Notes under the pieces: generated by a model
Seen by the model: only the letters and a program-made list of their open reading frames with translations
Told to the model about the DNA's origin: nothing
Databases searched by the model: none
NCBI GenBank assembly: GCA_903886255.1
Contig: CAISLM010000073.1
Coordinates: 1-62,604 of the forward strand
Length of the DNA: 62,604 nucleotides
From: Candidatus Collierbacteria bacterium
Lineage (GTDB): Bacteria; Patescibacteriota; Microgenomatia; UBA1400; MFAQ01
Direction: 5' to 3'
Part shown: one piece after another, positions 35,957 through 53,124 of the stretch
How the letters are laid out: each line of letters begins with the position of its first letter
Position numbering within the stretch: position 1 is the first letter of the stretch
Program-made: the position numbers and the translations under genes

Positions 35957-35995
35957 CGTCATTGCGAGTCTCGTATTCGAGCCGAAGCAATCCAG
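35957..35995 (+). repeat. GTCATTGC...GCAATC palindromic element, copy E1 (rpsE|rplO)
   Basis: CGTCATTGCGAGTCTCG-TATT-CGAGCCGAAGCAATCCAG. Confidence 0.9.
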
Positions 35996-36011
35996 AATAT
36001 AAATAAAACAT

Positions 36012-36461
36012 ATGAACCTAAGTAATCTTCCCAAAACAGTCGAAACCGGTAAAAAACGCCTTGGTCGTGGCTACGGCTCCGGAGTTGGCGGTCACACTGT
36101 TGGTCGTGGCCAAAAAGGTCAAAAAACCCGTGGCACCATGCCTCTCTGGTTCGAAGGTGGACAGCTTCCAATCATCCGTCGTACTCCTTTCATCAAAGGC
36201 AAGCACCGCTTCCAGGTCATTAATCTTCAGCCCATCACTGTTAACTTCGACATTCTTACTAAGTATTTTGAAGACAAGGCTGTTATCGACTCTGCTTCTC
36301 TCATTAAGACTCTCAAAATCAGCGATAAAGAGGCCAAAAGAGGTTTCAAGATCATCCGCACCGGCAAGCTTGAAAAAGCTCTCGAGGTTAACGTTCCTGC
36401 CACAGCTGGAGCCATCAAAGCAATCGAAACCGCCGGCGGCAAATATACCTTCTCCAAATAA
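36012..36461 (+). CDS. rplO: 50S ribosomal protein L15
   Basis: KRLGRGYGSG, GRGQKGQKTR, FEGGQLP; no rpmD between rpsE and rplO. Confidence 0.99.
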   Translation: MNLSNLPKTVETGKKRLGRGYGSGVGGHTVGRGQKGQKTRGTMPLWFEGGQLPIIRRTPFIKGKHRFQVINLQPITVNFDILTKYFEDKAVIDSASLIKTLKISDKEAKRGFKIIRTGKLEKALEVNVPATAGAIKAIETAGGKYTFSK

Positions 36462-36471
36462 CTCCTTATTC

Positions 36472-36522
36472 CTCATTGCGCCCGCCCGCCTATGGAGGGA
36501 GCGTACTCGAGCGGCAATCCAG
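36472..36522 (+). repeat. Palindromic element, divergent copy E2 (rplO|cassette island)
   Basis: CTCATTGCG...GCGTACTCGAGCGGCAATCCAG. Confidence 0.75.
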
Positions 36523-36556
36523 TCCCTGGTTTCGCGTTGTAATATAACCTATATAG

Positions 36557-36576
36557 TGGTAGAATACCCTAACTTA
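36557..36576 (+). promoter_or_regulatory. Extended -10 with shared CCCT-AACTTA module
   Basis: TGGTAGAAT-ACCCT-AACTTA; covered by the inverted repeat GTGGTA/TACCAC (36556-36580). Confidence 0.55.
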
Positions 36577-36681
36577 CCACCTTGACATTTTAAGACTTGT
36601 CGAAGATCTTCAACGGCCACGAACTACCGTCTTGACGTGTACAGTGAAGCCAATTCCACTAATTTTTTTCAGGAGAGAAAA

Positions 36682-37050
36682 ATGTCAGATATCCCCAATA
36701 GATTTTCCTTATTAAAGGGCCTGGTTATGGTCACGCCAGGCATAGTCACAAACTGGTATCCCAACGTCGCCTTCTTTGACACTGTCACTGGAGAACAAAA
36801 GATTATCCTCGACGGTCCCAACACAGCCGTGCTTTATAAAGCACTAAAATACCTGGCCGACAAAGAAGACCGTTCCAGTGATGAGGTTTTAGACTCCGTA
36901 GTTGTTAGTGGATTAAAATATCATCTGTCCCAGGTTAGAGGATACCTCTATCTCTCTCCTGCTGGCAAATTTTGGAATAACTGGGCCGCCTCTATCGCAG
37001 TCCTCGATATTTCCCATATGAATAAACTGATCCAGACCATCGAATCCTAA
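36682..37050 (+). CDS. Hypothetical protein, 122 aa (cassette 1); distant paralog of 38091
   Basis: SD AGGAG before ATG 36682; ALKYLA...GYLYLSPAG...FW. Confidence 0.7.
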   Translation: MSDIPNRFSLLKGLVMVTPGIVTNWYPNVAFFDTVTGEQKIILDGPNTAVLYKALKYLADKEDRSSDEVLDSVVVSGLKYHLSQVRGYLYLSPAGKFWNNWAASIAVLDISHMNKLIQTIES

Positions 37051-37063
37051 AACGATCACTCGC

Positions 37064-37088
37064 CCCACCCTCAAACGGGTGGGTTTTT
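37064..37088 (+). terminator. CCCACCC/GGGTGGG hairpin terminator, copy 1
   Basis: CCCACCC-tcaaac-GGGTGGG-TTTTT. Confidence 0.85.
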
Positions 37089-37090
37089 AC

Positions 37091-37112
37091 TGATATAATA
37101 CCCTGTAACTTA
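37091..37112 (+). promoter_or_regulatory. Extended -10 with shared CCCT-AACTTA module
   Basis: TGATATAAT-ACCCT-GT-AACTTA; SD GAGGAGG at 37120-37126. Confidence 0.65.
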
Positions 37113-37131
37113 AAATTCTGAGGAGGTTTCT

Positions 37132-37335
37132 GTGGATATCTTGAAGCAAAACCAACTAATTGCTGGATTCTTCTCTGTTTTTGGCATCCTGTTCTATTTT
37201 ATTTTTGTCCATATCGACAGCTTTATTGCTTTTAGCCTTCTCGTTTGCGGCGTCCTCTGCGGCATCATGTTTATCATTTTTACTATCTGGCGTTTCATCA
37301 TCAAACCCTGGCGCTTTTCCAAAAACAGGAAATAA
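37132..37335 (+). CDS. Small 2-TM membrane protein, 67 aa (cassette 2)
   Basis: GTG start with strong SD; two hydrophobic helices and a basic tail. Confidence 0.7.
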   Translation: MDILKQNQLIAGFFSVFGILFYFIFVHIDSFIAFSLLVCGVLCGIMFIIFTIWRFIIKPWRFSKNRK

Positions 37336-37381
37336 AATACTCCACACCCACCCCACAATTTTCCCTCAGATTGCAGAAATT

Positions 37382-37404
37382 CCCACCCCACCAGGGTGGG
37401 TTTT
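37382..37404 (+). terminator. CCCACCC/GGGTGGG hairpin terminator, copy 2
   Basis: CCCACCC-cacca-GGGTGGG-TTTT; an extra half-site CCCACCCCAC lies at 37347-37356. Confidence 0.82.
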
Positions 37405-37564
37405 GCTATTTAAACACCTCAAAATACAGTATAATTCAGCCATCCGAAAACCTTAACATTCAGTTTGAGGAGAAACATGATTCTCACCACGATTGAGACC
37501 AGACTGGTCAAAGATCCCGCCAATCACCTGTTTTTTCCAAGCAAAAACCATAAAGGAGATTCTT

Positions 37565-38086
37565 ATGAAACGCCTCTTGTTTCTCACATGGATAATCTAT
37601 CTGATCGTGGGTGTCATCCTGGTTGTCACCAAATTCTTACCATCTTGTAATCCTGGCAGAGGCACAGGTTTGGAATGTGATTTCTCCGTCGGCAAACTCG
37701 CCAAAATCGATTCACCTGCCAAGATCATCATCTCCAGTTTCGACCCCTTCACTTTTGGCTACCGCAGCGCGTCGGTCGATGGTTGGGAAAAAGTCACCCC
37801 TCTAAATATCTATGGATTCTATTACCTAACCATAAACACCAAGGGACCGGTTGAAATGCAAATGTTCCAATCAGGCGGAGATACCAATGTTCCCTACATC
37901 AGGGTTAGTCAAATAACTGAAGGTCAATATCCATCGCTTTCTGTTTCCCGAACTTGGTACCACCCGCTTACCCAATTAGTCCAATGGTATTTATTTCCGG
38001 TGTTACTAATCGATATCGCTCTTTTTATCGCTTTTGCTTGGATCTTTTTTCACCGATTTTCAAAGCTGGGTTCCTCCGAGGAATAA
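37565..38086 (+). CDS. Membrane protein, 173 aa, with N- and C-terminal TM helices (cassette 3)
   Basis: SD AAAGGAG before ATG 37565; Cys pair in the extracellular loop. Confidence 0.72.
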   Translation: MKRLLFLTWIIYLIVGVILVVTKFLPSCNPGRGTGLECDFSVGKLAKIDSPAKIIISSFDPFTFGYRSASVDGWEKVTPLNIYGFYYLTINTKGPVEMQMFQSGGDTNVPYIRVSQITEGQYPSLSVSRTWYHPLTQLVQWYLFPVLLIDIALFIAFAWIFFHRFSKLGSSEE

Positions 38087-38090
38087 CACC

Positions 38091-38432
38091 ATGGATTATA
38101 AGCTTGTCCAAGCTGGTCCCCTTACCGAGCCCAATGAAGGTTTACTCATCGCCCTTAACTATCTCGCCAGTTTAGCTATTCAGTCGGGGACAGAAAAATT
38201 GGGCGACAAAAATCTACTCGTGAAAGACAATATACTCTATGTTAGATACAGCTACGGTCATCTAGCGATCAAACCCTCCGGAGCTACGGACACTCAAAAA
38301 CATTTTTGGGTTGATAACGATCTTCTTCCACTCCCCGGACTCTTTTCTATCGATCTAGAGGATATCCGTTCCATCGTTCGTCACCTCGACAAATTTCTGC
38401 TTCTGGCCGGTATCGACACTACCCGATTCTAA
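38091..38432 (+). CDS. Hypothetical protein, 113 aa; distant paralog of 36682
   Basis: SD GAGGA before ATG 38091; ALNYLA...GHLAIKPSG...FW. Confidence 0.7.
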   Translation: MDYKLVQAGPLTEPNEGLLIALNYLASLAIQSGTEKLGDKNLLVKDNILYVRYSYGHLAIKPSGATDTQKHFWVDNDLLPLPGLFSIDLEDIRSIVRHLDKFLLLAGIDTTRF

Positions 38433-38439
38433 ATTAATT

Positions 38440-38465
38440 ACCCACCCTTACCGGGCGGGTTTTTT
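38440..38465 (+). terminator. CCCACCC/GGGCGGG hairpin terminator, copy 3
   Basis: ACCCACCC-ttacc-GGGCGGGT-TTTTT. Confidence 0.8.
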
Positions 38466-38486
38466 CTGGTGTAAAATCTCTCCACC

Positions 38487-38993
38487 ATGTCTCCCGAGAA
38501 AGAAATTGATCATATCGAAAGAGAAAAAATATTCATTGGCCCTGTCGAAGTCGATTGTGATCCCAGTATGATCGCCCACTGTCTAGATCCATATCCTCGT
38601 CACCCCCATGGCTGCCCCAATTGGGGAAAAAAGGAGGGCTGTCCTCCCCATGTCCGTTTCTTTCCTCATGTCTATTCAACCGACGTTCATATTGCTGCCG
38701 TCCGCTTTAATTTTGCCGATTATCTAGAGCTTCGCCATCGTGATCATCCGAGCTGGACAGATAGAGCTCTGCGCAACCCTCTTTACTGGCAGGGTCATAT
38801 CCGTCACGAATTGAATCAATTTTTATTTGAATATCTCTCGACCCACCCGGAAATTCACGGTGAAATCGTTTTTAATCCCGAAGCCATGGGCGTCAATCTC
38901 TTTGTCACCTGTAAAAAGGCAGGCCTTAATCTCGAACAAACTCCTCGAAATAATGTTTACAAGATTGCCTTAATCGCGAACAAGTTAAACTAA
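38487..38993 (+). CDS. DUF2284-like predicted metal-binding protein
   Basis: CPNWGKKEGCPP and PEAMGVNLFVTCKKAG. Confidence 0.65.
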   Translation: MSPEKEIDHIEREKIFIGPVEVDCDPSMIAHCLDPYPRHPHGCPNWGKKEGCPPHVRFFPHVYSTDVHIAAVRFNFADYLELRHRDHPSWTDRALRNPLYWQGHIRHELNQFLFEYLSTHPEIHGEIVFNPEAMGVNLFVTCKKAGLNLEQTPRNNVYKIALIANKLN

Positions 38994-39022
38994 ATTCACT
39001 CCTAACTGATAAAATAAAACCA

Positions 39023-40306: not shown

Positions 40307-40309
40307 CGT

Positions 40310-40345
40310 CGTCATTGCGAAGCACGGAGTGCTGTGGCAATCCAG
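40310..40345 (+). repeat. Palindromic element copy E3a (secY|adk)
   Basis: CGTCATTGCGA-AGCAC-gga-GTGCT-GTGGCAATCCAG. Confidence 0.9.
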
Positions 40346-40355
40346 TTCCCTCCTT

Positions 40356-40392
40356 GTCATTGCGAGGCTCGTACTCGAGCCGAAGCAATCTC
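40356..40392 (+). repeat. Palindromic element copy E3b (secY|adk)
   Basis: GTCATTGCGA-GGCTCG-tact-CGAGCC-GAAGCAATCTC. Confidence 0.9.
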
Positions 40393-40421: not shown

Positions 40422-40976
40422 ATGAACTTAATTATTCTCGGTCCTCAAGGATCCGGTAAGGGTACTCAAGCAAAACTGATCGCCGAAAAATTTGGCCTGA
40501 CACACATTGCCAGTGGTGACCTTCTTCGAGCCGAAGCCGAAAGTGGTTCTGAAATGGGCAAAGTCTTCGAAAAAATATTGGCCAGTGGCGAACTAGTTCC
40601 TTTTGACACAGTTCTCAAAGTTATTGAACCCGTCCTCCTAAAATCAAAGGGTGGTTTTATTCTCGATGGCACACCCCGAGACGTCAGTCAGGCCGAATAT
40701 CTCGATTCATTTCTTACGGATTTAAAAATGAACATCGATAAAGTTATCCTTCTGGATATCCCTCGCGAAGTCAGTTTGGATCGGCTTGCCAAAAGAGCCA
40801 TTCTAGAGGGAAGATCAGACGATACTCCAGAGGCAATTGACGAAAGGTTGCAGCTTTATCACAACAAAACAGTTCCCGTCATCGATCACTACAAAAACCA
40901 GGGGAAACTTTTAGTTGTAGATGGAACTCTTGACATTCAAACTATTTTTCAAGACATCGTCAGTAAACTCAACTAG
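40422..40976 (+). CDS. adk: Adenylate kinase, short-LID type
   Basis: GPQGSGKGTQA, SGDLLR, LDGTPR, GRSDD. Confidence 0.95.
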   Translation: MNLIILGPQGSGKGTQAKLIAEKFGLTHIASGDLLRAEAESGSEMGKVFEKILASGELVPFDTVLKVIEPVLLKSKGGFILDGTPRDVSQAEYLDSFLTDLKMNIDKVILLDIPREVSLDRLAKRAILEGRSDDTPEAIDERLQLYHNKTVPVIDHYKNQGKLLVVDGTLDIQTIFQDIVSKLN

Positions 40977-41010
40977 TCATTGCGAAGCACGGAGTGCTGT
41001 GGCAATCCAG
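40976..41010 (+). repeat. Palindromic element copy E4a (adk|map), identical to E3a
   Basis: GTCATTGCGAAGCACGGAGTGCTGTGGCAATCCAG; begins on the G of the adk stop codon. Confidence 0.9.
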
Positions 41011-41020
41011 TTCCGCTTCC

Positions 41021-41051
41021 CGTCATTGCAACGTTCACGCGCGGTGATCCG
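41021..41051 (+). repeat. Degenerate palindromic element copy E4b
   Basis: CGTCATTGCAACG-TTCAC-gcgcg-GTGATCCGG. Confidence 0.55.
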
Positions 41052-41075
41052 GAAAATAGCATAAAATATACCCAA

Positions 41076-41810: not shown

Positions 41811-41901
41811 TGTGGCTGTTTCCATCTTGTATTCAGTTTGATTTTTCACTAAAATGAATCATCGGAGGTTATTAAACCTTCCTTGTTTGCGTACAACCTG
41901 C

Positions 41902-44900
41902 ATGAAATCTAATCATATATTAACTGGTCTAAAGAAGTATTTCTTTTCCCCTCGATTTCATTTCAATCGTTTTCAATTCAATTTAGTCGCAATCTTATTT
42001 ATCTCACTTGGACTAATTATCGGTTCGTACCTAACCCTCTCAAAAATTCTTCCCTCTGTCTTTGCTTCCACCAATGCTTCTGTCACCAAAGACACTGACA
42101 CCGATTTCAACCAAGGAAGTTATTCATCCTCTTTAATAATTTCTGGAATCGGTTCACCGGCCGCAGCCAAATTAATTGCCCTTCCCGCAAGTACTCCTTA
42201 CTGGAGAGCTATTACTATTAACAATGCTTCAAACTCGGCCACCCTCTCGGATTATCAAGTTCCGATTACCTTAGATACAGCCACCTTGATTTCGGGAGGT
42301 AAATTACAATCCGACTGTCGAGATATCCGTATTCAAGACTACAACGGAGTTGAAATTCCCAATTATTGGATCGAGAAATGCAATAGTGCCACTACAAAAA
42401 TCTGGGTAAAGGTTCCTAGTATCCCTGCCTCTTCTTCAAAAATTATTTATTTGTTTTATGGTTCCGGAGCAGGCACTTCGTCACAATCTTCGACCACAAA
42501 CACTTTCATCAGAGAAATAACTAATGTTGTTGGTTCGTGGGGCTTCGACGAAACTGTGGCAGGGACTACTTTAGCCGATAGATCGGGTAGGGGAAACAAT
42601 GGCACTGTCCAGAATGAACCACAATATATTATTGTTGACGGAAAATTTGGAAAAGCTAGGCTATCCGATGGAATGTACAACAGCTATTACTTCTTCGGGA
42701 CAAATCTGGCGATTTCTGGCAACGCCTCAATGAGTGCATCGATTTGGTTCGATTCAACTAAACCTGCCAGTGGTGTGAAATACTTTGGATATTTGGGGAA
42801 CGGCTATTCATATGACTCTTTTAGTTTGACGCTGGGATCGTATGGTCACTCTGGTGATAACAGATTAGGCATTGGGTATAACGGTAGTGGTGAGTATACC
42901 AGTGCCATCAATCAATTTACCCCAAATGTTTGGCACAATTTTGTTGGCACAAAAATGCCTGGCGCTGTAAATACTACCTCCAAACTCTATCTTGATGGTA
43001 CTGAAATTCAGTCTGAATTTGGTACTACCGGTACACCAAATTTTAATTTCACCAATAACTATTTCGATTTACAGGGAATGTTGCCAAACGTCGGGATTGA
43101 TGAATATATAATTTACAACAAGGCTTTATCCGCTGCAGAAGTTACCGATATCGCCAATAATTACGTCTATACCACCACCAACTACCCTGGAAAAGGTTTA
43201 GTGAAAAAATATTCATCGCCGGAACCGACATCATCCGCTGGCAGTGAACAGGGAGGTACTGTTTCGGGAACATGGGAATCTCCAACTGATTCAAATACAA
43301 TTGACCTTAGATGGAATGGTGGTTGGGGAGACGGGACCATCAGTTCACCTGCATTTTCTGCTGCCGTAACAAACGTCAATACCACCGACACGATTACCTT
43401 CGCCATGCGTGTCGCCACCTCATCTTCGTTACTTAGTTCATCCTCATACGTTACTATCGGAACAGTTAATTCAGGTACTACATTTACCAAAACCAAAGGA
43501 GATCTTGACGCACTAGGAATTGCCACAGGTAACAATCGTTATGCCCAAGTAAAAGCCACCATTTCTAAAACAACGGCAAATACAACACCCTCGCTTGATT
43601 CGTTTTCAATAAATTATCTTCGAGACAATAGTAACCCGGACGCAAACCCTGCCGTCACAGGTTACGCAAATAGCACCAAGGCAGTTCCGATCCCCAATAA
43701 TAGTTGGACAAATGTTAATGCGCCATATTTTCAATTCGCCAACGCCACCGATCCCGAATCAGGTATACAAGGTTACTGTGTTTATTTTGGAACAGATAGC
43801 TCTGCTGATCCAGCCACCACTAAAGGTTTACTTTCTACCTCTGAGCAGCCGATCGACAACAGTGCCTGTCCGTACGTCACCTATAACCCGTACATTGATT
43901 TATCGACTCACCTGGTTTCTCTCTTATCGACCAATACCACTTACTATCTCAATATTCGTTCCAAGGATTATCAAGGTAACCTTTATTCGAACAGTTCGTA
44001 TTCTACTTTTACTTATAAATTCGACAATACTTCCCCCGTTAATTTAACCGGAATCTCCGCCCCTCAAACCTATCAAAGCCAAGTAAATAGCTTCGTCGTC
44101 TATTGGGCCACCACGGGAGGCACTGCCGCGACAGATAATTTATCACAGGTCAAAGGCTATCAATATAAAATTAATAATGGCACCTGGTTCGGCAGCGGCC
44201 ACACTGGCACGCAAGACTGCACTGACCTCATTACCACCGGTTCTTATGCTCTAAACAACGCCTATGATTCACTAAATGTTGGCGAGAATACATTTTATTT
44301 ACGGGTCTATGATAATGCTTGCAACGTTTCGGCTACAAATATTTCTACCATTTTGAAATATTCCGGAATTGCCCCCACCGAGCCTCAAAATCTTCAGGTC
44401 AATCCATCTTCAAATACTCAAAACTCATTTGCTTTTTCTTGGTCTGTCCCGGCCACTTTCGCCGGACTACAAACGGGAATTAATTATTGTTATTCCACCA
44501 ACGCCTTACCCTCAAATGTTAATTGTTCCTGGACTAGTTCTACCACCTTGACAGCCGACGCTTACGCCACTCAACCGGGAGAAAATACCCTTTATGTTGT
44601 TGCCAAAGACGAGGCCGGCAATGTCAACTACAACGCTTATGCTTCGGTAAAATTTACTGCCAACACCTCAGCCCCGGGTGCACCTAGCAATCTCGACGTC
44701 TCTGACATTTCTATCAAAGCCACTTCAAACTGGAAGCTCACGGCTTCCTGGGATATTCCAACGGAAACAGGTGCTGGTGTTTCTGTGTATAAAATTTTCC
44801 GCAGTACGACAAATTCTGCCTGCACGACTTCTCTTTCTTCTTTTACTCAAATTGGTTCAACTGCCGGAACATCATATACCGATACCGGTTTAATTCAACA

Positions 44901-46242
44901 AACATATTATTATTGTGTTAAGGCCTGCGATTCAGCCAATAATTGTTCTGCCTCGTCAACCACGGTATCAAAATTACCTACCGGAAAATATTATTCCCCG
45001 GCCAATTTGGTCTCCTTACCGGTCATATCTTCAATTACTACCAAACGAGCCACAATTAGCTGGAGTACTGATCGAACATCCGATTCGAAAATCCAATTTG
45101 GCACAACTTCAGGGAGTTACAACGATGTCCAGCCAAGCAATTCTAGTCAAGTGACTTCACATTCAATCGAGTTAACAGGTTTAAATCCGGGGACGACTTA
45201 TTATTTCAAGGCCCAATGGACCGACGAGGATGGAAATACCGGTACTAGCGATGAACAGTCATTTTCAACCCAGCCTGCCCCAAGTGTTCAAGACGTTACC
45301 GCCGGAACCATCGGATTATCCTCAGCACTAGTTTCCTTCACTACTAACGGAGCTGACAGCGTCAAAATATATTATGGTACCACCACCAGTTTTGGGGGAG
45401 TGATCACAACGCAAACCTCAACGGCCCAGACAACATATACATCCCAGCTTACCGGTCTACTTGATGGCACAAAATATTATTTCAAAATAAATACATTTGA
45501 CTCTGATGGTACCGAATACGACGGAACTGTTTTGGATTTTACTACTCTTCCCAGACCAAAAATATCATCCGTTAGACTCGAACAAGTTGCTAATACAGCC
45601 CAAACAACAGTTCTCGTTACATGGTCAACGAATACAGAAGTTTCTTCAATCATCACCTATTATCCGGAAAATAATTTAACTGGCTCCAAAGACGAAGTTA
45701 AAGTTGCTCTCGAAAAAGGCCCTCACAGTATGTTCGTTAGAGGACTTTTGCCGCAAACAAATTACGCGTTAGTAGTTAGAGGACGAGACAAAATTGGCAA
45801 CGAAGCCATTTCAGATACTCAAACATTTACTACGGCAACCGACACTCGTCCGCCACAGATTATCAATCTTAAAGTTGTCGGTGGCACTGTCCCTCCGGTC
45901 GGTTTTGCAGCAGGCGAAGTCAAAGCCCAGCTGGTTATCACTTGGGATACCGACGAACCGGCCACTTCTCAAGTTGAGTTTGGTGAAGGTACTGGTTCTA
46001 CCTATGTCCAGAAATCTCAGGAGGACGGCAATCTCACCACCAACCATGCCGTCATTCTTTCAAATCTAACCCCGAGCCAGGTCTATCACTTGAGAGCTAT
46101 CTCCAAAGACGCTGCCGGTAACGAAGCTCAAAGTATTGACCAAGTTACCATTGCCCCCAAAGCCACCAAATCGGCTCTTGATTTGGTCGTCAAGAATCTT
46201 TCCGAAGCTTTCAGTTTTGTAGGTGCACTTAAATTACCATAA
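41902..46242 (+). CDS. Giant surface protein: TM anchor, DUF2341, LamG/ConA-like lectin, multiple fibronectin type III domains
   Basis: YQVPITLDTATLI...DCRDIRI...KIWVKVPSIPA (DUF2341); WGFDET..GTT..D.SG.GNNG...IDEYIIYNKALSAAEV (LamG); several L.GL.PGT.YY FN3 signatures. ATG 41902 preferred. Confidence 0.85.
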   Translation: MKSNHILTGLKKYFFSPRFHFNRFQFNLVAILFISLGLIIGSYLTLSKILPSVFASTNASVTKDTDTDFNQGSYSSSLIISGIGSPAAAKLIALPASTPYWRAITINNASNSATLSDYQVPITLDTATLISGGKLQSDCRDIRIQDYNGVEIPNYWIEKCNSATTKIWVKVPSIPASSSKIIYLFYGSGAGTSSQSSTTNTFIREITNVVGSWGFDETVAGTTLADRSGRGNNGTVQNEPQYIIVDGKFGKARLSDGMYNSYYFFGTNLAISGNASMSASIWFDSTKPASGVKYFGYLGNGYSYDSFSLTLGSYGHSGDNRLGIGYNGSGEYTSAINQFTPNVWHNFVGTKMPGAVNTTSKLYLDGTEIQSEFGTTGTPNFNFTNNYFDLQGMLPNVGIDEYIIYNKALSAAEVTDIANNYVYTTTNYPGKGLVKKYSSPEPTSSAGSEQGGTVSGTWESPTDSNTIDLRWNGGWGDGTISSPAFSAAVTNVNTTDTITFAMRVATSSSLLSSSSYVTIGTVNSGTTFTKTKGDLDALGIATGNNRYAQVKATISKTTANTTPSLDSFSINYLRDNSNPDANPAVTGYANSTKAVPIPNNSWTNVNAPYFQFANATDPESGIQGYCVYFGTDSSADPATTKGLLSTSEQPIDNSACPYVTYNPYIDLSTHLVSLLSTNTTYYLNIRSKDYQGNLYSNSSYSTFTYKFDNTSPVNLTGISAPQTYQSQVNSFVVYWATTGGTAATDNLSQVKGYQYKINNGTWFGSGHTGTQDCTDLITTGSYALNNAYDSLNVGENTFYLRVYDNACNVSATNISTILKYSGIAPTEPQNLQVNPSSNTQNSFAFSWSVPATFAGLQTGINYCYSTNALPSNVNCSWTSSTTLTADAYATQPGENTLYVVAKDEAGNVNYNAYASVKFTANTSAPGAPSNLDVSDISIKATSNWKLTASWDIPTETGAGVSVYKIFRSTTNSACTTSLSSFTQIGSTAGTSYTDTGLIQQTYYYCVKACDSANNCSASSTTVSKLPTGKYYSPANLVSLPVISSITTKRATISWSTDRTSDSKIQFGTTSGSYNDVQPSNSSQVTSHSIELTGLNPGTTYYFKAQWTDEDGNTGTSDEQSFSTQPAPSVQDVTAGTIGLSSALVSFTTNGADSVKIYYGTTTSFGGVITTQTSTAQTTYTSQLTGLLDGTKYYFKINTFDSDGTEYDGTVLDFTTLPRPKISSVRLEQVANTAQTTVLVTWSTNTEVSSIITYYPENNLTGSKDEVKVALEKGPHSMFVRGLLPQTNYALVVRGRDKIGNEAISDTQTFTTATDTRPPQIINLKVVGGTVPPVGFAAGEVKAQLVITWDTDEPATSQVEFGEGTGSTYVQKSQEDGNLTTNHAVILSNLTPSQVYHLRAISKDAAGNEAQSIDQVTIAPKATKSALDLVVKNLSEAFSFVGALKLP

Positions 46243-46247
46243 AAAAT

Positions 46248-47000
46248 ATGACGACAAATGAAACACAAGCAGTCATTAAAGTCCAAAATATATCTAAGAC
46301 TTTCCATGTCAAATCTCAAGATGTCCAAGTATTATCAAATATTTCCCTGACTGTTAATAAAGGTGATTTCTTAATTCTTTTTGGACATTCCGGTTGCGGA
46401 AAATCTACCTTACTTCATATTTTGCTCGGTCTTGAACCGCCCAGCACCGGGAAATTAATCTTTTTTGGAAAATCGCTTTACGAAAATATGGACGAAGACG
46501 AGAGGACTGAATTCAGGAAAACACACATTGGCATGGTTTATCAGCAGCCAAACTGGATTAAATCCCTTTCGGTTCTTGATAATATTGTTTTTGCACTTCG
46601 TTTAAACGGAATTAAGGCGAATGAGGCAGTCCAAAAAGCAAATTCAGTTCTCAGAACTGTTGGCATGGAAGAGTGGTCCGATTACGTGCCAACGGAATTA
46701 TCATCCGGTCAGCAGCAAAAAATTGCTCTAGCCAGAGCCATAGTTACCAACCCGGATATATTGATTGCTGACGAACCCACTGGAAATTTGGATTTCGAAT
46801 CCGGTCAGGATCTGATGAACTTATTGTCCAAACTAAACAAAGAAGGCAAAACTATTATCATGGTTACCCACGACCTTGAATATTTACCCTTTGCCAATAG
46901 AGCTATTCAGATGTTCAACGGTAAAGTTATTCAGGAGGTAGAAGACCCCAAGACATTTGTCAAAACGGAAAACAAATTACTCAAAAGAGTTACATCATGA
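46248..47000 (+). CDS. ABC transporter ATP-binding protein (LolD/MacB type)
   Basis: GHSGCGKST, LSSGQQQ, ADEPTGNLD, IIMVTHD. Confidence 0.95.
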   Translation: MTTNETQAVIKVQNISKTFHVKSQDVQVLSNISLTVNKGDFLILFGHSGCGKSTLLHILLGLEPPSTGKLIFFGKSLYENMDEDERTEFRKTHIGMVYQQPNWIKSLSVLDNIVFALRLNGIKANEAVQKANSVLRTVGMEEWSDYVPTELSSGQQQKIALARAIVTNPDILIADEPTGNLDFESGQDLMNLLSKLNKEGKTIIMVTHDLEYLPFANRAIQMFNGKVIQEVEDPKTFVKTENKLLKRVTS

Positions 47001-49066
47001 AAAAAAGACGCTTATATCGATATTCCCAAACACCAATCGATTCTCCTGTTGAGAAAAATAAACTGGAAATCGCCAAAGAACACCTTTTTTCCAAAATAGT
47101 TTTATTTTCTAAAGGAGTTATAAATTTAATTTTTTTCATCATCATCGTGGCAGTATTCGTCATCAATAAGGGCATAAACTGGCTTCTAAAATTGAGATTT
47201 ATGTCGCCGGTAAAAAACAAGCTCGGAAAATGGATTGATATTACCTATACCAAAATAATGTCGATTATTGATCCTGAACCTCAGCATAGTTTTAATCGGT
47301 CATACCTAATTGAGTTATCACTTAGTAATATGAAAGCCAAAAAAACCAGGACTCTAGTAACCATGGGTGGTATGGCGATTGGGATGGCCTTTATTGTTTT
47401 CTTGGTTTCTGTTGGGTATGGTCTTCAAAGCATGGTCGTTTCCCGTGTTGCCCGGCTTGATGAATTAAAGCAGGCAGACGTTGTTCCTGGTATGTCGTCG
47501 GATTTAATTTTAGATGACAGCTCGTTGTCGAATTTTTCCACTATTCCAAATGTAAAATCGGCCATGCCAATTATCGCGGTCGTTGGCAGAATTTCCTACC
47601 AACAGTCGGTTTCAGATATGGCTGTTTATGGCGTCACCACAGATTACTTAAAAAATTCTGCGATCCAACCAACCCAAGGAAAAATATTTGAAGACGCCAA
47701 CGCCGTTTCAATGGTCCAAAGTAATGGTCAAGTTGCCGGAGCATCAACCACACTCAAAACATTTTTTGTCGGAGACAAAATTGGTCCCGTCGATTTTGAA
47801 ATAGAACCCACATCTTGGTTAAGAGTTAGAGAATCGGCTTCCCCAACCGCAAAAATTATCGGCTATACTCGGAAAGTTGAAGGTAGTCAGTCCGGAACTG
47901 AAATCGTTGGCAAATATTATACAAATCCTGCCGATAGCTCGACAGAACTATCGGATTCGGACGGGAACAAGTTAGGAAAGTGGATAAAGACGATGGTTCC
48001 TTTGTGGCAGAAAGGCACTTGCGACAATAGCAGTAATGCCGCCTGCGAAGACGGGATGTATTCGCCGATCATAAATGATCAGGGCGGTCAAGGTCAGTCA
48101 GATGGCTTCATTGCCGAGTTATCCATGAAAATAACTAAAACTTCAGTTAGCACCCCCAAAGTCCTCGGCCTCTCTACTGATAATAATTCAAATGGTTCAC
48201 TGCCAATAGTTGATATCGCAAGTGAGTCTGCCATCGTCCAGGAAACCCAAAACAAAATCGTTGAGGTTTCCCCCCTAGCTAAAAAGGTTGCCGTTGTTAA
48301 TCGGTCTGTCCTGCAAGTTCTAAATCTTTCCGAAGGCAATGCTGTTGGTAAGAAAGTTACCCTTACTTTTGTTGTCGTCGGTGACCTAACTTCCGACTCA
48401 AAAGATAAGATTGAATCGGCCCCCACCGAATACACTATCATTGGGGTTATCCCGGACGAGGGTACTCCCATGGTTTATGTTCCGTTCTTAGATCTTAGAT
48501 CCCTCGGCATCACTAAATATTCCCAAATTAAGCTGATCGTGGCAGACCCCGGTAGTCTCAGTAAAGTTAGGTCCACCATCGAGGCCAGAGGATACGGAAC
48601 TGTTTCTGTTGCTGATACTGTGACCCAAATCGACAATCTTTTCTCCAGCTTCAGATTGATCTTGGCTGTTCTGGGTATGGTCGCCTTATCTGTGGCTGCC
48701 TTGGGCATGTTCAACACTCTGACAGTGTCTTTATTGGAGCGTACCCGGGAAGTCGGCCTGATGAAAGCCATGGGTATGAAATCTAGCGAAGTCAAAGATT
48801 TATTCCTCACTGAATCTATGATCATGGGTTTCTTCGGCGGCGTGATTGGGCTATTTATGGGAACGCTTGCTGGAAAGCTTTTGAGTTTGATTCTGACTGC
48901 GTTTTCTCTAATCAAAGGTGTGGGCACAGTCGATATTTCTTATGTTCCACCTGTATTCGTAGCCACAGTTCTAATCCTATCTGTCCTGGTGGGCATCCTT
49001 ACTGGCTATTTCCCGGCCAGGCGTGCCACCAAGATTTCTGCACTCAACGCCCTCCGCTACGAATAG
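46997..49066 (+). CDS. ABC transporter permease (MacB/FtsX type) with a large extracytoplasmic insertion
   Basis: RTLVTMGGMAIG, SLLERTREVGLMKAMG, FPARRATKISALNALRYE; insert includes SH3-like LRVRESASPTAKIIG. Confidence 0.93.
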   Translation: MKKRRLYRYSQTPIDSPVEKNKLEIAKEHLFSKIVLFSKGVINLIFFIIIVAVFVINKGINWLLKLRFMSPVKNKLGKWIDITYTKIMSIIDPEPQHSFNRSYLIELSLSNMKAKKTRTLVTMGGMAIGMAFIVFLVSVGYGLQSMVVSRVARLDELKQADVVPGMSSDLILDDSSLSNFSTIPNVKSAMPIIAVVGRISYQQSVSDMAVYGVTTDYLKNSAIQPTQGKIFEDANAVSMVQSNGQVAGASTTLKTFFVGDKIGPVDFEIEPTSWLRVRESASPTAKIIGYTRKVEGSQSGTEIVGKYYTNPADSSTELSDSDGNKLGKWIKTMVPLWQKGTCDNSSNAACEDGMYSPIINDQGGQGQSDGFIAELSMKITKTSVSTPKVLGLSTDNNSNGSLPIVDIASESAIVQETQNKIVEVSPLAKKVAVVNRSVLQVLNLSEGNAVGKKVTLTFVVVGDLTSDSKDKIESAPTEYTIIGVIPDEGTPMVYVPFLDLRSLGITKYSQIKLIVADPGSLSKVRSTIEARGYGTVSVADTVTQIDNLFSSFRLILAVLGMVALSVAALGMFNTLTVSLLERTREVGLMKAMGMKSSEVKDLFLTESMIMGFFGGVIGLFMGTLAGKLLSLILTAFSLIKGVGTVDISYVPPVFVATVLILSVLVGILTGYFPARRATKISALNALRYE

Positions 49067-49142: not shown

Positions 49143-49175
49143 ACAATTTAACTTTCTGTCCCAAAGGAGGATCAG

Positions 49176-49577
49176 ATGAAACTCGTAACTATCGGTGACA
49201 TTGTTCTAAGCAAAATCGATCAAGACACACTTCCTCAGCTCCCGGATGATAAAACAACGAACATGGAGCTCAGTCTGGCCAGCAGTAAGTGGAACCATGC
49301 AGAAGAAGAATGGGTAGTTGCCATGCTTTCTTCATTCGCCGTCAAGAATGGTGCCTGGTGCCCAGTTCTTTGGAAAGATCTGGTCAAAATGTCTAAAAAG
49401 GAGAACAAACATCTTCTCGATCACGAACTGATGATTGCCGTCACGATCTCAAATATGGTCGCCACAGGCGATTTGATGATCGTTCACAATATCAAAGATG
49501 ACCTATTCTACATTGTCCCACTGCCTTCCCTCGGAAAAACGATCGCAAGCTGCGGACATGAATGGCGTCGTAAATAA
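49176..49577 (+). CDS. Hypothetical protein, 133 aa; self-contained cassette
   Basis: Has its own promoter, SD and terminator. Confidence 0.72.
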   Translation: MKLVTIGDIVLSKIDQDTLPQLPDDKTTNMELSLASSKWNHAEEEWVVAMLSSFAVKNGAWCPVLWKDLVKMSKKENKHLLDHELMIAVTISNMVATGDLMIVHNIKDDLFYIVPLPSLGKTIASCGHEWRRK

Positions 49578-49587
49578 TAATATTTCT

Positions 49588-49618
49588 TGCCGGAGACTCA
49601 ATGTCTCCGGCATTTTTT
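49588..49618 (+). terminator. Intrinsic terminator
   Basis: TGCCGGAGAC-tcaat-GTCTCCGGCA-T6. Confidence 0.88.
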
Positions 49619-49717
49619 GTGGCTTTATAGTACAATTTACCCTATCAAGCCATTGTCCAAACAGGCACTAGCAATGCGTGCCTATCTTTGGTACAATATC
49701 GCTTGTACAACTTATAT

Positions 49718-49936
49718 ATGGCTAAAAACCAAATGACCGAGGTAAACGGAGTCGTTTCCGAGGCTTTACCCAACACACAATTTCGGGTAACTCTCGAAGA
49801 CGGCAGAGAAATCTTGGCTCATCTTGCAGGTAAAATGCGGCTCTATCGCATTCGCGTGATGCCCGGTGACAAAGTTAAGCTCGAAATGAGCCCCTACGAC
49901 ACCGACAAAGGCAGAATCACTTACCGGTCAAGTTGA
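49718..49936 (+). CDS. infA: Translation initiation factor IF-1
   Basis: [30 protein letters not shown]; ATG 49718. Confidence 0.98.
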
Positions 49937-50001
49937 TCCTTTTTCTTCCTCTGTTTGCTCTATAATACTAAAACATTTATTAACCTAAAAACTAAACACG
50001 C

Positions 50002-50115
50002 ATGCGCGTTCAATCGTCAGTCAGACCCAGATGCAAAAACTGCAAAATTATTAAACGCCACGGGAAGGTGTTCATTATTTGCATCAACCCACGCCACAAA
50101 CAGCGTCAAGGATAA
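50002..50115 (+). CDS. rpmJ: 50S ribosomal protein L36 (not in ORF track)
   Basis: [37 protein letters not shown]. Confidence 0.98.
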
Positions 50116-50131
50116 TTAAAATATACAAAAT

Positions 50132-50539
50132 ATGCCAAGAATTGCCGGTATCGACATCCCAAACGAAAAAAGAATTGACATCGCTCTCACATATATCTTC
50201 GGAATAGGTGACAAAGTTGCCAAAGACATCCTCAAAACAGCCAAAGTTGATCCTAGTATCCGCACCAAAAATCTAACTTCAGACGAATTTAAAAGTATCC
50301 AAAATGCAATCGAAGCCCTACCTACCGAAGGTGAGCTCAGAAAAATCATCCGCGACAATATTGAAACCTTAAAAAGAATCCAAGCTTATCGTGGTGTCCG
50401 CCATATGATGGGTCTACCTGTCAGAGGTCAAAGAACCCGCACCAACGCTCGTACCCGTAAGGGAAAGAGAAAGACCATTGGCGCCATCTCCAAAGAAGCC
50501 GCTACTAAAACAACTGAAACTCCTGCCGCAAAGAAATAA
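50132..50539 (+). CDS. rpsM: 30S ribosomal protein S13
   Basis: MPRIAGIDIP, GLPVRGQRTRTNART. Confidence 0.99.
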   Translation: MPRIAGIDIPNEKRIDIALTYIFGIGDKVAKDILKTAKVDPSIRTKNLTSDEFKSIQNAIEALPTEGELRKIIRDNIETLKRIQAYRGVRHMMGLPVRGQRTRTNARTRKGKRKTIGAISKEAATKTTETPAAKK

Positions 50540-50549
50540 TTAAACAACC

Positions 50550-50969
50550 ATGCCAGAAACAAAAACCAAGGAAACACCAAAAATAGTTAAAAAAGTTAAG
50601 AAAGCGTCAGCTGTCCACTTTAAGAGTGGTCAGGGAAAGATGTACGTCAAATCTACTTTTAATACTACTTATGTCTCTTTCACAAACATGAATGGTGACG
50701 TTATTTGCTGGAGTTCTGCCGGAACCTGTGGATTCAAAGGTGCCAAACGTTCTACCCCTTTTGCTGCTACCACCATTATTGAAGAAGGTACCCGAAAAGC
50801 TAAATCTCAAGGTTTAACTTCCGTCGACGTTTTCCTCAAAGGCCCCGGCCCTGGCAAAGATGCCGCTCTTCGTGTCCTAAAAACTTCCGGTATTGATATT
50901 AATTTACTTGCCGACACCACTCCCATTCCTCACAATGGTTGCCGCCCCAAGAAAACTAGAAGAGTCTAA
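50550..50969 (+). CDS. rpsK: 30S ribosomal protein S11
   Basis: GFKGAKRSTPFAA, DTTPIPHNGCRP. Confidence 0.99.
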   Translation: MPETKTKETPKIVKKVKKASAVHFKSGQGKMYVKSTFNTTYVSFTNMNGDVICWSSAGTCGFKGAKRSTPFAATTIIEEGTRKAKSQGLTSVDVFLKGPGPGKDAALRVLKTSGIDINLLADTTPIPHNGCRPKKTRRV

Positions 50970-50975
50970 AACACT

Positions 50976-51015
50976 GTCATTGCGCGATTCGGTACTCCGA
51001 ACCAAAGCAATCCAG
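50976..51015 (+). repeat. Palindromic element copy E5 (rpsK|rpsD) with compensatory stem changes
   Basis: GTCATTGCGCGA-TTCGG-tact-CCGAA-CCAAAGCAATCCAG. Confidence 0.85.
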
Positions 51016-51041
51016 AATATAAAAATAAAACTAAACAAAAC

Positions 51042-51665
51042 ATGGCAAAATATATCGACCCAAAATGCAGACTCTGCCGCCGCGAAGGCGTCAAGCTCTA
51101 TCTCAAAGGAGAACGTTGTTTCTCCCCCAAATGTCCTATTGAAAAAAGAGGCGCCCAGATCCCTGGCCAGCATGGTAAAAAAAGATCACATGGCCGCATT
51201 TCCGGATACGGAATTCAGCTTCGTGAAAAACAAAAAGCCAAACGCTCATACGGCGTTCTCGAAGGTCAATTCCACAAATATTATGAAGTTGCTATCAAAT
51301 CGGCTCAAAACACCGGTGAAGTTCTCATGCAGCTTCTCGAATCTCGCTTGGACAACGTCGTCTTCCGCTTTGGATTCGTTGCCAGCAGATCTTTAGCTCG
51401 TCAGCTAGTTACCCATGGTAACGTTTCTATCGATGGTAAAAAGGTTGATATTGCCTCTTACACCACAAAACCAGGCCAAACAGTTAAGATTTCCGATAAA
51501 GCCACCAAATTCACTTTCGTTTCTCCAAACTTAACCGAGAAGAGTGTTTCAGCCAAATGGTTATCCAAAAAAGGTGCCGAAGGCAAAATCGATCGTCTCC
51601 CAACTCGTGAAGAAATCGGCAGTGATATTAAGGAAAATCTCATTATCGAGTACTACTCAAGGTAA
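51042..51665 (+). CDS. rpsD: 30S ribosomal protein S4 (zinc-binding type)
   Basis: CRLCRREG...C...C, LESRLDNVVFR, IEYYSR. Confidence 0.99.
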   Translation: MAKYIDPKCRLCRREGVKLYLKGERCFSPKCPIEKRGAQIPGQHGKKRSHGRISGYGIQLREKQKAKRSYGVLEGQFHKYYEVAIKSAQNTGEVLMQLLESRLDNVVFRFGFVASRSLARQLVTHGNVSIDGKKVDIASYTTKPGQTVKISDKATKFTFVSPNLTEKSVSAKWLSKKGAEGKIDRLPTREEIGSDIKENLIIEYYSR

Positions 51666-51694
51666 TTATTTTAGCAATTAAAAAACAAAAGAAA

Positions 51695-52597
51695 ATGTTA
51701 GAACCAAATTTCAAAGTTTCAGTCAAGGACATTGCCGTTAACTCCGCCGAAGTTATTATTGAGCCTCTTCCACAGAATTTTGGTCATACACTGGGAAACG
51801 CTATTCGTCGTGTTTTGTTAACCTCTCTCGAAGGTGGTGCCGCTACCCGTGTCAAAATTGATGGCGTTACCCACCAGTTCTCCACATTAGCCGGTATGAA
51901 AGAGGATGTTTTGGAGCTTATTTTAAATCTCAAAACTCTAAACTTTGCTGTCGATTCCGATGAACCGGTTGAAATCAAACTGAAAGCTTCCGGATCCACC
52001 ATCGTTAAGGCATCAGACTTAGATCTTCCTTCAAACGTTACACTCGCTAACCCCGACGTCATTCTTTGCCACCTCACTTCTCCCAAAGCCAAGCTGGTTG
52101 CTACTGTTACTGTCGCCAAGGGTATGGGTTATGTCGCTGCCGAGGAAAATGCTACCGACGAAATTGGTGTCATTCCACTAGATTCTTCCTTCTCTCCGGT
52201 CATCAAAGCCAACTACACCATCGAAGCCGCCCGTGTTGGACGTTCCTCAAACTACGACAAGGTTCGCTTGGCCTTAACCACAAATGGAACTATCACCCCA
52301 GGTGAGGCAGTCAAGAGTGCCGCTCGTATTCTTACCGGATTTTTCGACTACGTTAACTCTGCAGAAGCTTACATTCAGGATGTCAAATCAAAGTCCGTCA
52401 TTGAAACCGCCGGTTTCGTAGACGACCTAGACCTTCCTACTCGCGTTCTAAACGCCTTGAAAAAAGCCGACATAAACAAGTTATCAGACCTTAAAGCTCT
52501 TACCCTCGCTGACCTTAAAAAAGTCAAAAACCTTGGAGAAAAATCTGCTACGCAGGTTATCGAAAAGGCAGCCGAGAAGGGCATTATTATTGAATAA
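51695..52597 (+). CDS. rpoA: RNA polymerase alpha subunit
   Basis: GHTLGNAIRRVLL, DSSFSPV, CTD LDLPTRVLNAL...NLGEKS. Confidence 0.99.
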   Translation: MLEPNFKVSVKDIAVNSAEVIIEPLPQNFGHTLGNAIRRVLLTSLEGGAATRVKIDGVTHQFSTLAGMKEDVLELILNLKTLNFAVDSDEPVEIKLKASGSTIVKASDLDLPSNVTLANPDVILCHLTSPKAKLVATVTVAKGMGYVAAEENATDEIGVIPLDSSFSPVIKANYTIEAARVGRSSNYDKVRLALTTNGTITPGEAVKSAARILTGFFDYVNSAEAYIQDVKSKSVIETAGFVDDLDLPTRVLNALKKADINKLSDLKALTLADLKKVKNLGEKSATQVIEKAAEKGIIIE

Positions 52598-52599
52598 AT

Positions 52600-53061
52600 A
52601 TGGGACGCCGACATCAATCAAAACTTCCAAAACTCAATCGTGACTCAAACTCCAGAAAATCCTTATTTAGGGTTCAGCTTAAGTCACTTATCGAGTACGG
52701 AAAGTTAACCACCACTGTAACCAAAGCCAAAATCATCAAACGCTTGTTTGATAAGCTTGCCGCCAAGGCCACCGAAGGTACTCTAGCTTCCCGCCGCAAC
52801 GTTTCGGCTACTCTCGGCTCACCCAAAACCGCCAACAGACTAATTGACGCCATTATCCCTGTAATGGGAGAACGCAAAAGTGGATTCACCACCATTCAAA
52901 AAGTTTCTGTCCAAAGAGGCGACGCCACCTCAATTGCCACTCTTAGCCTAGTCGCTATGCCACCGGTTGTCGAAAAGAAAGTTGAAGTCAAAGAAAAAAA
53001 GGCCCCTGTCAAAGAAGTAAAAAAAGAAACTAAAAAAGTAGTTAAAAAAGAAGCCAAATAG
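52600..53061 (+). CDS. rplQ: 50S ribosomal protein L17 with Lys/Glu-rich tail
   Basis: KLNRDSNSRKSL, TTVTKAK, RKSGFT...RGDA. Confidence 0.96.
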   Translation: MGRRHQSKLPKLNRDSNSRKSLFRVQLKSLIEYGKLTTTVTKAKIIKRLFDKLAAKATEGTLASRRNVSATLGSPKTANRLIDAIIPVMGERKSGFTTIQKVSVQRGDATSIATLSLVAMPPVVEKKVEVKEKKAPVKEVKKETKKVVKKEAK

Positions 53062-53068
53062 CCACACA

Positions 53069-53106
53069 GTCATTGCGAGTCTCGTAATCGAGCCGAAGCA
53101 ATCCAG
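53069..53106 (+). repeat. Palindromic element copy E6 (rplQ|rplM)
   Basis: GTCATTGCGAGTCTCG-TAAT-CGAGCCGAAGCAATCCAG; one mismatch to E1. Confidence 0.9.
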
Positions 53107-53124
53107 GAAATACAAATAAAACAT

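Follow-up and report, generated by a model that had tools for sequence, protein, structure and literature searches.

Palindromic repeats at ribosomal supercluster junctions of a Collierbacteria contig: probable recent insertions of a widespread REP-like element

Results

Eight co-oriented palindromes follow genes of the ribosomal supercluster

Positions 1 to 62,604 (nucleotides, nt) of contig CAISLM010000073.1, from a Candidatus Collierbacteria bacterium and analysed here as a whole (the window), hold a ribosomal supercluster in which eight copies of a short palindromic repeat are found at gene junctions. The repeat reads CGTC-ATTGC...GCAAT-CCA(G); six copies are clean, one is rearranged and one is decayed, and all are on the + strand (Table 1). 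The flanking genes were identified by Pfam as those for S5, L15, SecY, Adk, Map, S11, S4, RpoA, L17 and L13. The first copy at each junction begins 3-9 nt past the stop codon, except that at adk the repeat head includes the last two bases of the TAG.

A search with the pattern GTCATTGC-N(10-40)-GCAATC yields six exact matches, on the + strand only (35958, 40311, 40356, 40976, 50976 and 53069), where 0.01 are expected from dinucleotide-preserving shuffles. The looser pattern ATTGC-N-GCAAT adds a seventh copy at 36475, and the eighth, decayed copy at 41022 was recognised by reading the sequence. Only such strict family patterns were applied, because a general CGTC-hairpin finder matched shuffled sequence as often as real sequence. 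A covariance model built from 22 distinct copies was run over the entire window with filters off. The same six clean copies are retrieved, with E values from 5e-12 to 2.5e-4; the copy at 36473 receives a weak score (E 5.7), the decayed copy at 41021 is missed, and no further match in the window is credible. The copies listed in the first-pass annotation, which was made from the sequence alone and described them as sharing one orientation behind stop codons, are thus confirmed: seven by pattern scan, six of them also by the covariance model, and the decayed one by reading the sequence. Outside the repeats the model scores best at 13373 (E 0.1), within the coding sequence of rpoC, where an inner hairpin is lacking. 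At this site (13373-13392) the conserved RpoC motif VIAAQS is encoded as CGTCATTGCTGCTCAATCC, which mimics the repeat termini, most likely by coincidence.

Table 1 Repeat copies and A-rich spacers in the window
Feature	Junction	Position	Strand	Head	Inner stem and loop	Tail	Remarks
Copy 1	rpsE/rplO	35957..35995	+	CGTC	(G)TCTCG/CGAG(C)C, loop TATT	CCAG	Outer stem ATTGC/GCAAT; 5 nt past rpsE stop; 61.9 bits; -9.6 kcal/mol, z -2.3
A-rich spacer AATATAAATAAAACAT	Copy 1 to rplO ATG	35996..36011	+
Copy 2	rplO/island	36471..36522	+	CCTC		CCAG	ATTGC...GCAAT termini; interior rearranged, CTCG-subtype likeness in 3' half only; 8.6 bits, E 5.7, z +0.47
Copy 3	secY/adk	40310..40345	+	CGTC	AGCAC/GTGCT, loop GGA	CCAG	First of head-to-tail pair; 3 nt past secY stop
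Copy 4	secY/adk	40355..40392	+	TGTC	GGCTCG/CGAGCC, perfect 6 bp	CTC	Second of pair; 60.3 bits; -16.8 kcal/mol, z -4.3
Copy 5	adk/map	40975..41010	+	AGTC			AG of head = last two bases of adk TAG stop; core identical to copy 3
Copy 6	adk/map	41021..41052	+	CGTC			Decayed (CGTCATTGCAACGTTCACGCGCGGTGATCCGG); z -0.34
Copy 7	rpsK/rpsD	50975..51015	+	TGTC	TTCGG/CCGAA, loop TACT	CCAG
Copy 8	rplQ/rplM	53068..53106	+	AGTC		CCAG	Subtype of copy 1, one loop base different; 56.2 bits
A-rich spacer GAAATACAAATAAAACAT	Copy 8 to rplM ATG	53107..53124	+				Absent at empty orthologous sites

At both secY/adk (40310-40392) and adk/map (40975-41052) the identical AGCAC-type copy, followed by CCAGTTCC, stands directly 5' of an older copy, and the secY junction reads TAACGTCGTCATTGC, with CGT repeated. 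It is suggested that new copies land either directly ahead of an existing CGTC head or directly behind a stop codon.

The inner hairpin is maintained by compensatory changes

When folded as RNA, each clean copy adopts a two-tier hairpin (-9.6 to -16.8 kcal/mol) in which the outer ATTGC/GCAAT stem encloses an inner hairpin; the copies at 36471 and 41021 do not form it. This architecture had initially been ascribed to all but the degenerate copy; it holds for the clean copies, and the copy at 36471-36522 proves to have no clean inner hairpin. In an alignment of the 38-nt class (22 distinct copies) the outer helix never changes, and all six inner-stem pairs vary on both sides (26 cells). The covariation score is 0.346, compared with 0.120 in shuffles, and none of 500 shuffles reaches it. 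Pairing is lost when the partners are slid in the alignment of these copies. The hairpin is therefore maintained by compensatory changes, bearing out the earlier observation that the inner stem varies yet stays paired. The sense strand folds better than the antisense strand in 57 versus 24 copies (p = 3e-4), and in 136 versus 22 in the viral set; G-U versus A-C pair counts (29 versus 55) do not favour the sense strand, making the strand asymmetry weak evidence.

Orthologous junctions are mostly empty in relatives

Relatives of the contig were drawn from a metagenome scan that gave 45 loci with SecY (62-91% SecY identity). The nearest group shows 76-79% nucleotide identity in conserved genes and is roughly star-like. 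In the typical empty state, rpsE/rplO and rplQ/rplM read TAAATCCTATG, secY/adk reads TAGTATG, and adk and map overlap as ATGA. Occupancy is patchy: 12 junctions are filled in 2-9 of 16-32 lineages, and 20 of the 32 junctions are never occupied. Repeats were found at rpsE/rplO in 4 of 22 lineages, at rplO/secY in 9 of 26, at secY/adk in 7 of 32, at adk/map in 8 of 26, at rpsK/rpsD in 4 of 20 and at rplQ/rplM in 2 of 20; further occupied junctions include rplN/rplX (4/19), rpsC/rplP (3/16) and rplR/rpsE (3/22).

The hairpin type at a given junction differs between lineages, with three types among the four occupied rpsK/rpsD junctions. Conversely, relatives that are only 70-79% identical at the nucleotide level carry identical hairpin sequences at the same or at different junctions; the hairpin of copy 7, for example, recurs at rplR/rpsE in the loci L166 and L180. 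In the relative L164 the ortholog of the decayed copy at 41021 is intact, and GAAAATAGCATAAAATATACCCAAATG lies downstream of both. Patchy occupancy, differing hairpin types, the decayed copy at 41021 and the rearranged copy at 36471 together argue for a mobile and individually dispensable element. Insertions are polymorphic among relatives and individual copies decay.

Where the empty junction is 5 nt long, the filled state has 16-18 extra A-rich bases before the ATG. The spacer AATATAAATAAAACAT is absent at empty orthologous sites and hence came with the insertion or after it. Copy 7 was inserted ahead of a pre-existing, native A-rich rpsD leader.

At rplQ/rplM, 18 of 20 lineages show the empty state (TAAATCCTATG or similar), and L159 has a hairpin of another family. 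Descent of the window and L159 insertions from one ancestral insertion was considered and is unsupported, because the members of the group are about equally distant from one another (76-79% nucleotide identity).

The positions of copies 1 and 8, exactly at rpsE/rplO and rplQ/rplM, had raised the possibility that the repeats are scars of rearrangement, marking where rpmD was lost from between rpsE and rplO and where rplQ became joined to rplM. All relatives that have these junctions (22 and 20 lineages, respectively) keep the same gene order, with 5-nt or overlapping spacers. As rpsE-rplO without rpmD and rplQ-rplM are shared by relatives that typically have no repeat, the gene order predates the insertions, and an origin as rearrangement scars is extremely unlikely. 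The absence of L30 was reportedly described by Brown and colleagues in 2015 as a trait of the whole candidate phyla radiation (CPR).

Several relatives show repeats that reach into coding sequence. In L137 (Collierbacteria GW2011_GWB2_45_17, LCKO01000001), an ATTGC-family copy at 7501-7546 lies in frame within rplR (L18) and adds the peptide ASLRGGRLRRPTKQSI relative to the L18 of the window. The same rplR site is filled in L180, L181, L182 and L190 with differing inner hairpins, an insertion into an essential gene that resembles those of the Rickettsia palindromic elements (RPEs). At adk/map of L164 the adk frame enters an ATTGC-family copy and stops at the loop TAA (CGTCATTGCGAGCG-TAA-TCGCGTGGCAATCCAG), so that the repeat provides the C-terminus and stop codon of adk in this lineage. 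In L159 (16522-16549), L154, L162, L178, L180 and others, the same set of junctions harbours a second family, of the classical CGTC type (TGTCATTCCGGGCTTGACCCGGAATC and variants). The locus L193 carries TGTCATTCCCGCGCAGGCGGGAATCCA, which we take to resemble the dRS3-type repeats of Neisseria.

The family is dispersed across genomes and phyla

Within the window the repeats occur only at junctions of the ribosomal operons, as first noted; beyond the window this restriction does not hold. The window subtype, with inner stem CTCG/CGAG, was found in 28 stretches of GTDB genomes, mostly of Collierbacteria, Woesebacteria and other Patescibacteria. Only two of these 28 loci are in the ribosomal cluster, and the 8 kb around each stretch contain many further copies as well as 47-nt tandem arrays. 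In the source lake metagenomes (four, DNA contigs), contigs break at the repeats and the repeats run into unrelated flanks; the subtype of copy 3 is likewise present there on contigs with other flanks. A scan of IMG/VR with GTCATTGCG-N-GCAATCCAG gave at least 119 viral contigs, the commonest forms among the matches listed being GTCATTGCGAGCGAAGCGAAGCAATCCAG and GTCATTGCGAGGAGCGAAGCGACGAAGCAATCCAG, often arranged in inverted pairs with a few bases between the partners. The motif is also present, unannotated, in plasmids of Methylosinus, Methylocystis, Novosphingobium, Legionella, Halomonas, Calothrix and Aulosira, hosts that span Alphaproteobacteria, Gammaproteobacteria and Cyanobacteria. In the Methylosinus plasmid pOB3b1 an inverted pair lies between convergent genes. 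The family is thus dispersed over many contigs of Collierbacteria and other CPR genomes and across phyla.

This distribution bears directly on the proposal, made in the first-pass annotation, that a mobile palindrome has been domesticated to serve ribosomal-protein operons in mRNA processing or translational control, for example in connection with S4 autoregulation. All window copies do lie between rpsE and rplM, one of them precedes rpsD (the S4 gene), and a 14-nt leader is common to rplO and rplM. Against this, positional conservation is lacking, as at rpsK/rpsD with its three hairpin types in 4 of 20 lineages; 26 of the 28 same-subtype loci are outside the cluster; and half of the window copies flank secY, adk and map, which are not ribosomal-protein genes. 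In addition, the leader resembles the A-rich start region seen throughout the genome (see below), and no ribosomal-protein leader in Rfam matched the window at the gathering threshold. With orthologous junctions mostly empty or filled by other hairpin types, and one window copy decayed and another rearranged, domestication for control of these operons is very unlikely.

Metagenome-assembled genomes labelled 'uncultured Pseudomonadales' or 'Gammaproteobacteria' (L122, L130, L132, L135, L138, L143 and L148; CAYTOI01, CAZPFY01, CAYGCQ01 and others) carry the CPR-type subtype together with CPR-typical tails. Either these labels may be wrong or the subtype may be common to several phyla.

Two other classes of repeat were considered and rejected by eye. 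A CRISPR reading was discarded: the sole regularly spaced array (L064) has near-identical 'spacers' and is therefore a tandem repeat. Integron attC sites, whose core sites are RYYYAAC/GTTRRRY, were discarded because the core sites of the repeat are unlike them.

Copies lie in sense orientation close behind stop codons

Among non-redundant copies of the ATTGC family in CPR loci, at least 85 stand behind an open reading frame (ORF) on the same strand and at most 2 behind one on the opposite strand; one of the two antisense cases is an artefact of ORF picking at rplO. In terms of placement, 63 copies lie between unidirectional, 12 between convergent and 1 between divergent ORFs. When both hairpin families are taken together, 74 of 125 copies with a same-strand upstream ORF are located no more than 12 nt from its stop or overlap its end. 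Copies are thus nearly always downstream of, and co-oriented with, the preceding gene, typically 0-12 nt past the stop or overlapping the 3' end. Three 3' tails recur and are common to both families: CCAGAAAAWAAA, CTATATARATAA and CTCACTCCAYC. The first-pass annotation had held that hundreds of randomly placed copies in both orientations, with no positional conservation, would mark an ordinary repetitive extragenic palindromic (REP) sequence; dispersed copies without positional conservation are largely what is seen, but not in both orientations.

Stable hairpins at gene 3' ends, which elsewhere form inverted pairs between convergent genes, could also be intrinsic terminators or attenuators that split the supercluster into transcription units. 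However, no copy is followed by a T-run, the downstream sequence reading CCAGAAUAUAAA..., and copies are found inside coding sequence in relatives. A terminator scan flags no copy on the + strand, yet it does find canonical hairpin-plus-T-tract sites at 37064, 37382 and 49588. We consider a terminator function highly improbable. A promoter reading of the TATA-rich tail was likewise rejected: by eye, the tail is only ~9-11 nt from the TTGAC in the loop, and a scan gave no excess of promoter-like sites.

The 14-mer AAATAAAACATATG precedes both rplO (36001-36014) and rplM (53114-53127), the spacer AATATAAATAAAACAT plus ATG sharing it with the rplM leader. The translation leader reported at the outset as common to these two genes is therefore present, but it resembles the A-rich start region found genome-wide. 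A Shine-Dalgarno-like motif was detected at 7 of 63 gene starts in the window, leaving 56 without one, and most starts are preceded by A-rich sequence, such as AAATAAATAAT or AAAATAAAACCA (AAAATAAAACCA-ATG before secY). Since A-rich leaders without a Shine-Dalgarno motif are normal in this genome, the shared leader is in part a generic start context. It may also in part reflect the origin of copies 1 and 8 as recent duplicates, their hairpins being one loop base apart.

Comparison with known palindromic elements

The CGTC-tagged REP superfamily of Di Nocera, De Gregorio and Rocco (2013, BMC Genomics 14:522; PMC3733652) comprises families CGTC-1 to CGTC-4 and includes Neisseria dRS3 and Rickettsia RPE-4 and RPE-6. 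Its members have an unpaired CGTC head (often TGTC or CCTC), a continuous 8-9-bp stem whose first two pairs are A-T, a loop of 4-5 nt and a short unpaired tail, mostly CCA. They lie between unidirectional or convergent ORFs, usually no more than 20 bp from the 3' end of the upstream ORF, have occasional intragenic copies and no dedicated transposase, and are predominantly arranged as head-to-head dimers (PMC3733652).

The heads of the window copies are CGTC (35957, 40310, 41021), TGTC (40355, 50975), CCTC (36471) or AGTC (40975, 53068), and those of relatives are overwhelmingly CGTC or TGTC. The stem starts with AT (ATTGC), its first two pairs being A-T and T-A. Six of the seven copies that keep the GCAAT 3' arm have the tail CCA(G) and the copy at 40355 has CTC; relatives have CCA, CTA or CTC. 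Further likenesses are the length of 30-40 nt, a placement between unidirectional or convergent ORFs and close to where the upstream one ends, occasional in-frame intragenic copies and the presence of several sequence types in one genome. In the window and the ~2.2 Mb of fetched loci, no associated transposase was found. At the same junctions, relatives additionally have copies of the classical type TGTCATTCCGGGCTTGACCCGGAATC. The early assignment of the termini to CGTC-tagged REPs and RPEs accordingly stands, as head, AT stem, CCA tail and position behind the ORF all agree with the published description (PMC3733652).

In contrast to the continuous stem of the CGTC REPs, that of the window family is compound: an outer stem of 5 bp is separated by an internal loop (GA opposite GAA, GTG or GCG) from an inner hairpin of 4-6 bp, which is variable. 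The second family in relatives (ATTCCGGG-CTTGA-CCCGGAAT) does have a continuous stem. Copies in the window and in CPR loci are single or head-to-tail, whereas inverted dimers are common in viral contigs and the Methylosinus plasmid, and the near-constant sense orientation also sets the window family apart. The CPR was absent from the hosts surveyed in 2013. The string ATTGCG does not occur in the text and supplements of that survey, and the intragenic-copy peptides listed there all derive from classical forms (PMC3733652). Judged against that text and its supplements, the ATTGC family is probably an undescribed fifth CGTC family.

GTAG REPs, BIMEs and REPINs, which are mobilised by RAYT and known from Enterobacteria and Pseudomonas, are likewise short extragenic palindromes with many dispersed copies behind genes, and are transcribed in operons. 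Enterobacterial REPs stabilise mRNA, and Liang and co-workers are said to have found in 2015 that a REP within ~15 nt of a stop codon lowers translation of the upstream gene. Outside the CPR, the window family forms REPIN-like inverted doublets. Unlike these elements, the window repeats have a head of CGTC rather than GTAG type, no RayT homologue in the fetched loci and no inverted doublets in the window, and they keep their termini from one phylum to another, where GTAG REPs tend to be species-specific. The RPEs offer a parallel for the in-frame copy inside the essential rplR of the relatives L137, L180 and L181. They differ in sequence, all eight window copies are intergenic, and classical RPE-1 is much longer, at about 100-150 bp.

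Searches for a mobilising enzyme and for known RNA families

Pfam annotation of 40 window proteins revealed no transposase. When E. coli RayT was compared by phmmer with all ORFs of the fetched loci (~2.2 Mb, partial genomes), nothing was obtained at E <= 10; the cognate RAYT gene that had been proposed as a check thus has no counterpart in any fetched locus. For the viral, GTDB and plasmid loci, ORFs lying up to 400 nt from a repeat were clustered, and the recurrent neighbours resemble, by eye, phage portal, capsid and terminase proteins; no recurrent enzyme gene adjoins the copies in this clustering of neighbours judged by eye. Rfam gave no match at the gathering threshold for the whole window and none of relevance at E <= 10 for two short stretches. 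Literature searches with the repeat sequence strings returned unrelated primers only, and a keyword search on REPs in CPR/Patescibacteria returned nothing specific.

Discussion

We put the probability at roughly three in four that the repeats inserted recently, as copies of a widespread, selfish palindrome that is REP-like and belongs to the CGTC-tagged superfamily, and are not a conserved control of the ribosomal operon. In this model, non-autonomous miniature palindromes would have inserted into tolerant junctions of the ribosomal supercluster in this Collierbacteria-like (Microgenomates) lake lineage. Each copy would be transcribed as part of the polycistronic mRNA and place a hairpin of -10 to -17 kcal/mol right behind a stop codon. 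By analogy with enterobacterial REPs, the hairpin could act as a barrier to 3' exonucleases and so protect the upstream segment. Because the junctions were 5 nt or overlapping before insertion, the original translational coupling of neighbouring genes would be broken, and translation of the downstream gene would begin at the A-rich stretch behind the hairpin, which lacks a Shine-Dalgarno motif, as is normal for starts in this genome. Effects on expression would then be side effects, tolerated or mildly tuned by selection, with no dedicated regulatory system.

Several points weigh against this interpretation. No mobilising enzyme was found in the window and the ~2.2 Mb of fetched loci, and mobility is deduced from presence/absence patterns. 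No RNA run carries the window sequence, and we infer transcription, hairpin formation and effects on mRNA or translation. The copies may be locally enriched in the genome, eight lying within 17 kb and none in the remaining 45 kb of the window. Finally, the near-absolute sense orientation, the repeatedly hit junctions and the cross-phylum termini exceed what would be expected of a purely selfish element. A genuine role at the RNA level, or an RNA-linked mode of spread, accordingly retains a small chance.

One explanation of this kind is a selected RNA-level module, in which a host factor (an RNase or a ribosome-associated protein) would recognise CGUC-AUUGC...GCAAU-CCA in the sense transcript, the repeat serving as a portable processing, stability or re-initiation signal and therefore being kept in sense orientation behind stop codons. 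The ratio of at least 85 sense to at most 2 antisense copies, the position 0-12 nt behind stops and the better folding of the sense strand would all fit, as would invariant termini around a freely covarying inner stem. So would the conservation of the termini from CPR to Proteobacteria, Cyanobacteria and viral contigs and the three 3' tails that recur across two hairpin families; many REPs have moreover been argued to act as RNA (Di Nocera et al., PMC3733652). However, the copies are dispensable, junctions being empty in most relatives and copies subject to decay, and outside the CPR the repeats occur mostly as inverted pairs, so that half would be antisense to any transcript. No Rfam family matches and no RNA run has the sequence, and covariation cannot separate an RNA hairpin from a hairpin of single-stranded DNA. 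We therefore regard such a module as unlikely.

A more speculative version, to which we give little credence, treats the ATTGC and classical CGTC families alike as sense-specific, portable intercistronic cassettes of head, hairpin and standard tail, spread or retained via the transcript, with the A-rich tail giving a start region without a Shine-Dalgarno motif. If this were true, such cassettes would be able to invade tightly coupled essential operons, and even coding sequence, across many phyla. One would then have to suppose either a conserved recognition protein of a new kind or spread by a route linked to RNA.

On the interpretation favoured here, a structured RNA peculiar to ribosomal operons turns out to be a false lead, and the repeats join a known class of selfish palindromes. 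The ~1 Mb genomes of CPR/Patescibacteria are rich in CGTC-type REPs, and the termini of one structurally distinct family, the ATTGC family, are nearly identical between CPR bacteria, Proteobacteria, Cyanobacteria and many viral contigs. Its near-constant sense orientation behind stop codons in CPR genomes, its repeated arrival at the same junctions of essential operons and, in some genomes, its in-frame copy within L18 are regularities that make it a reasonable system for asking how REPs without a transposase spread. In practical terms, such repeats break assemblies and create spurious small ORFs in metagenome annotation.

Other features of the window

The gap between rplO and secY (36523-39022) is a hypervariable island that ranges from 663 to 4591 nt among relatives. 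In the window it contains four ORFs without significant Pfam match (one with a weak DUF2284 match) and two terminator-like sites (37064, 37382). Between map and infA (41854-49066), the usual spc/alpha cluster is split by genes for a surface-type DUF2341/fibronectin-III protein of 1462 aa and for a pair of MacB-like ABC transporter proteins. On the - strand, two ice-binding-like (PF11999) proteins are encoded beside a sortase at 58456-61690, and a second sortase gene lies at 3427-4176. The ice-binding-like proteins and sortases are probably cell-surface proteins of a lake CPR bacterium.

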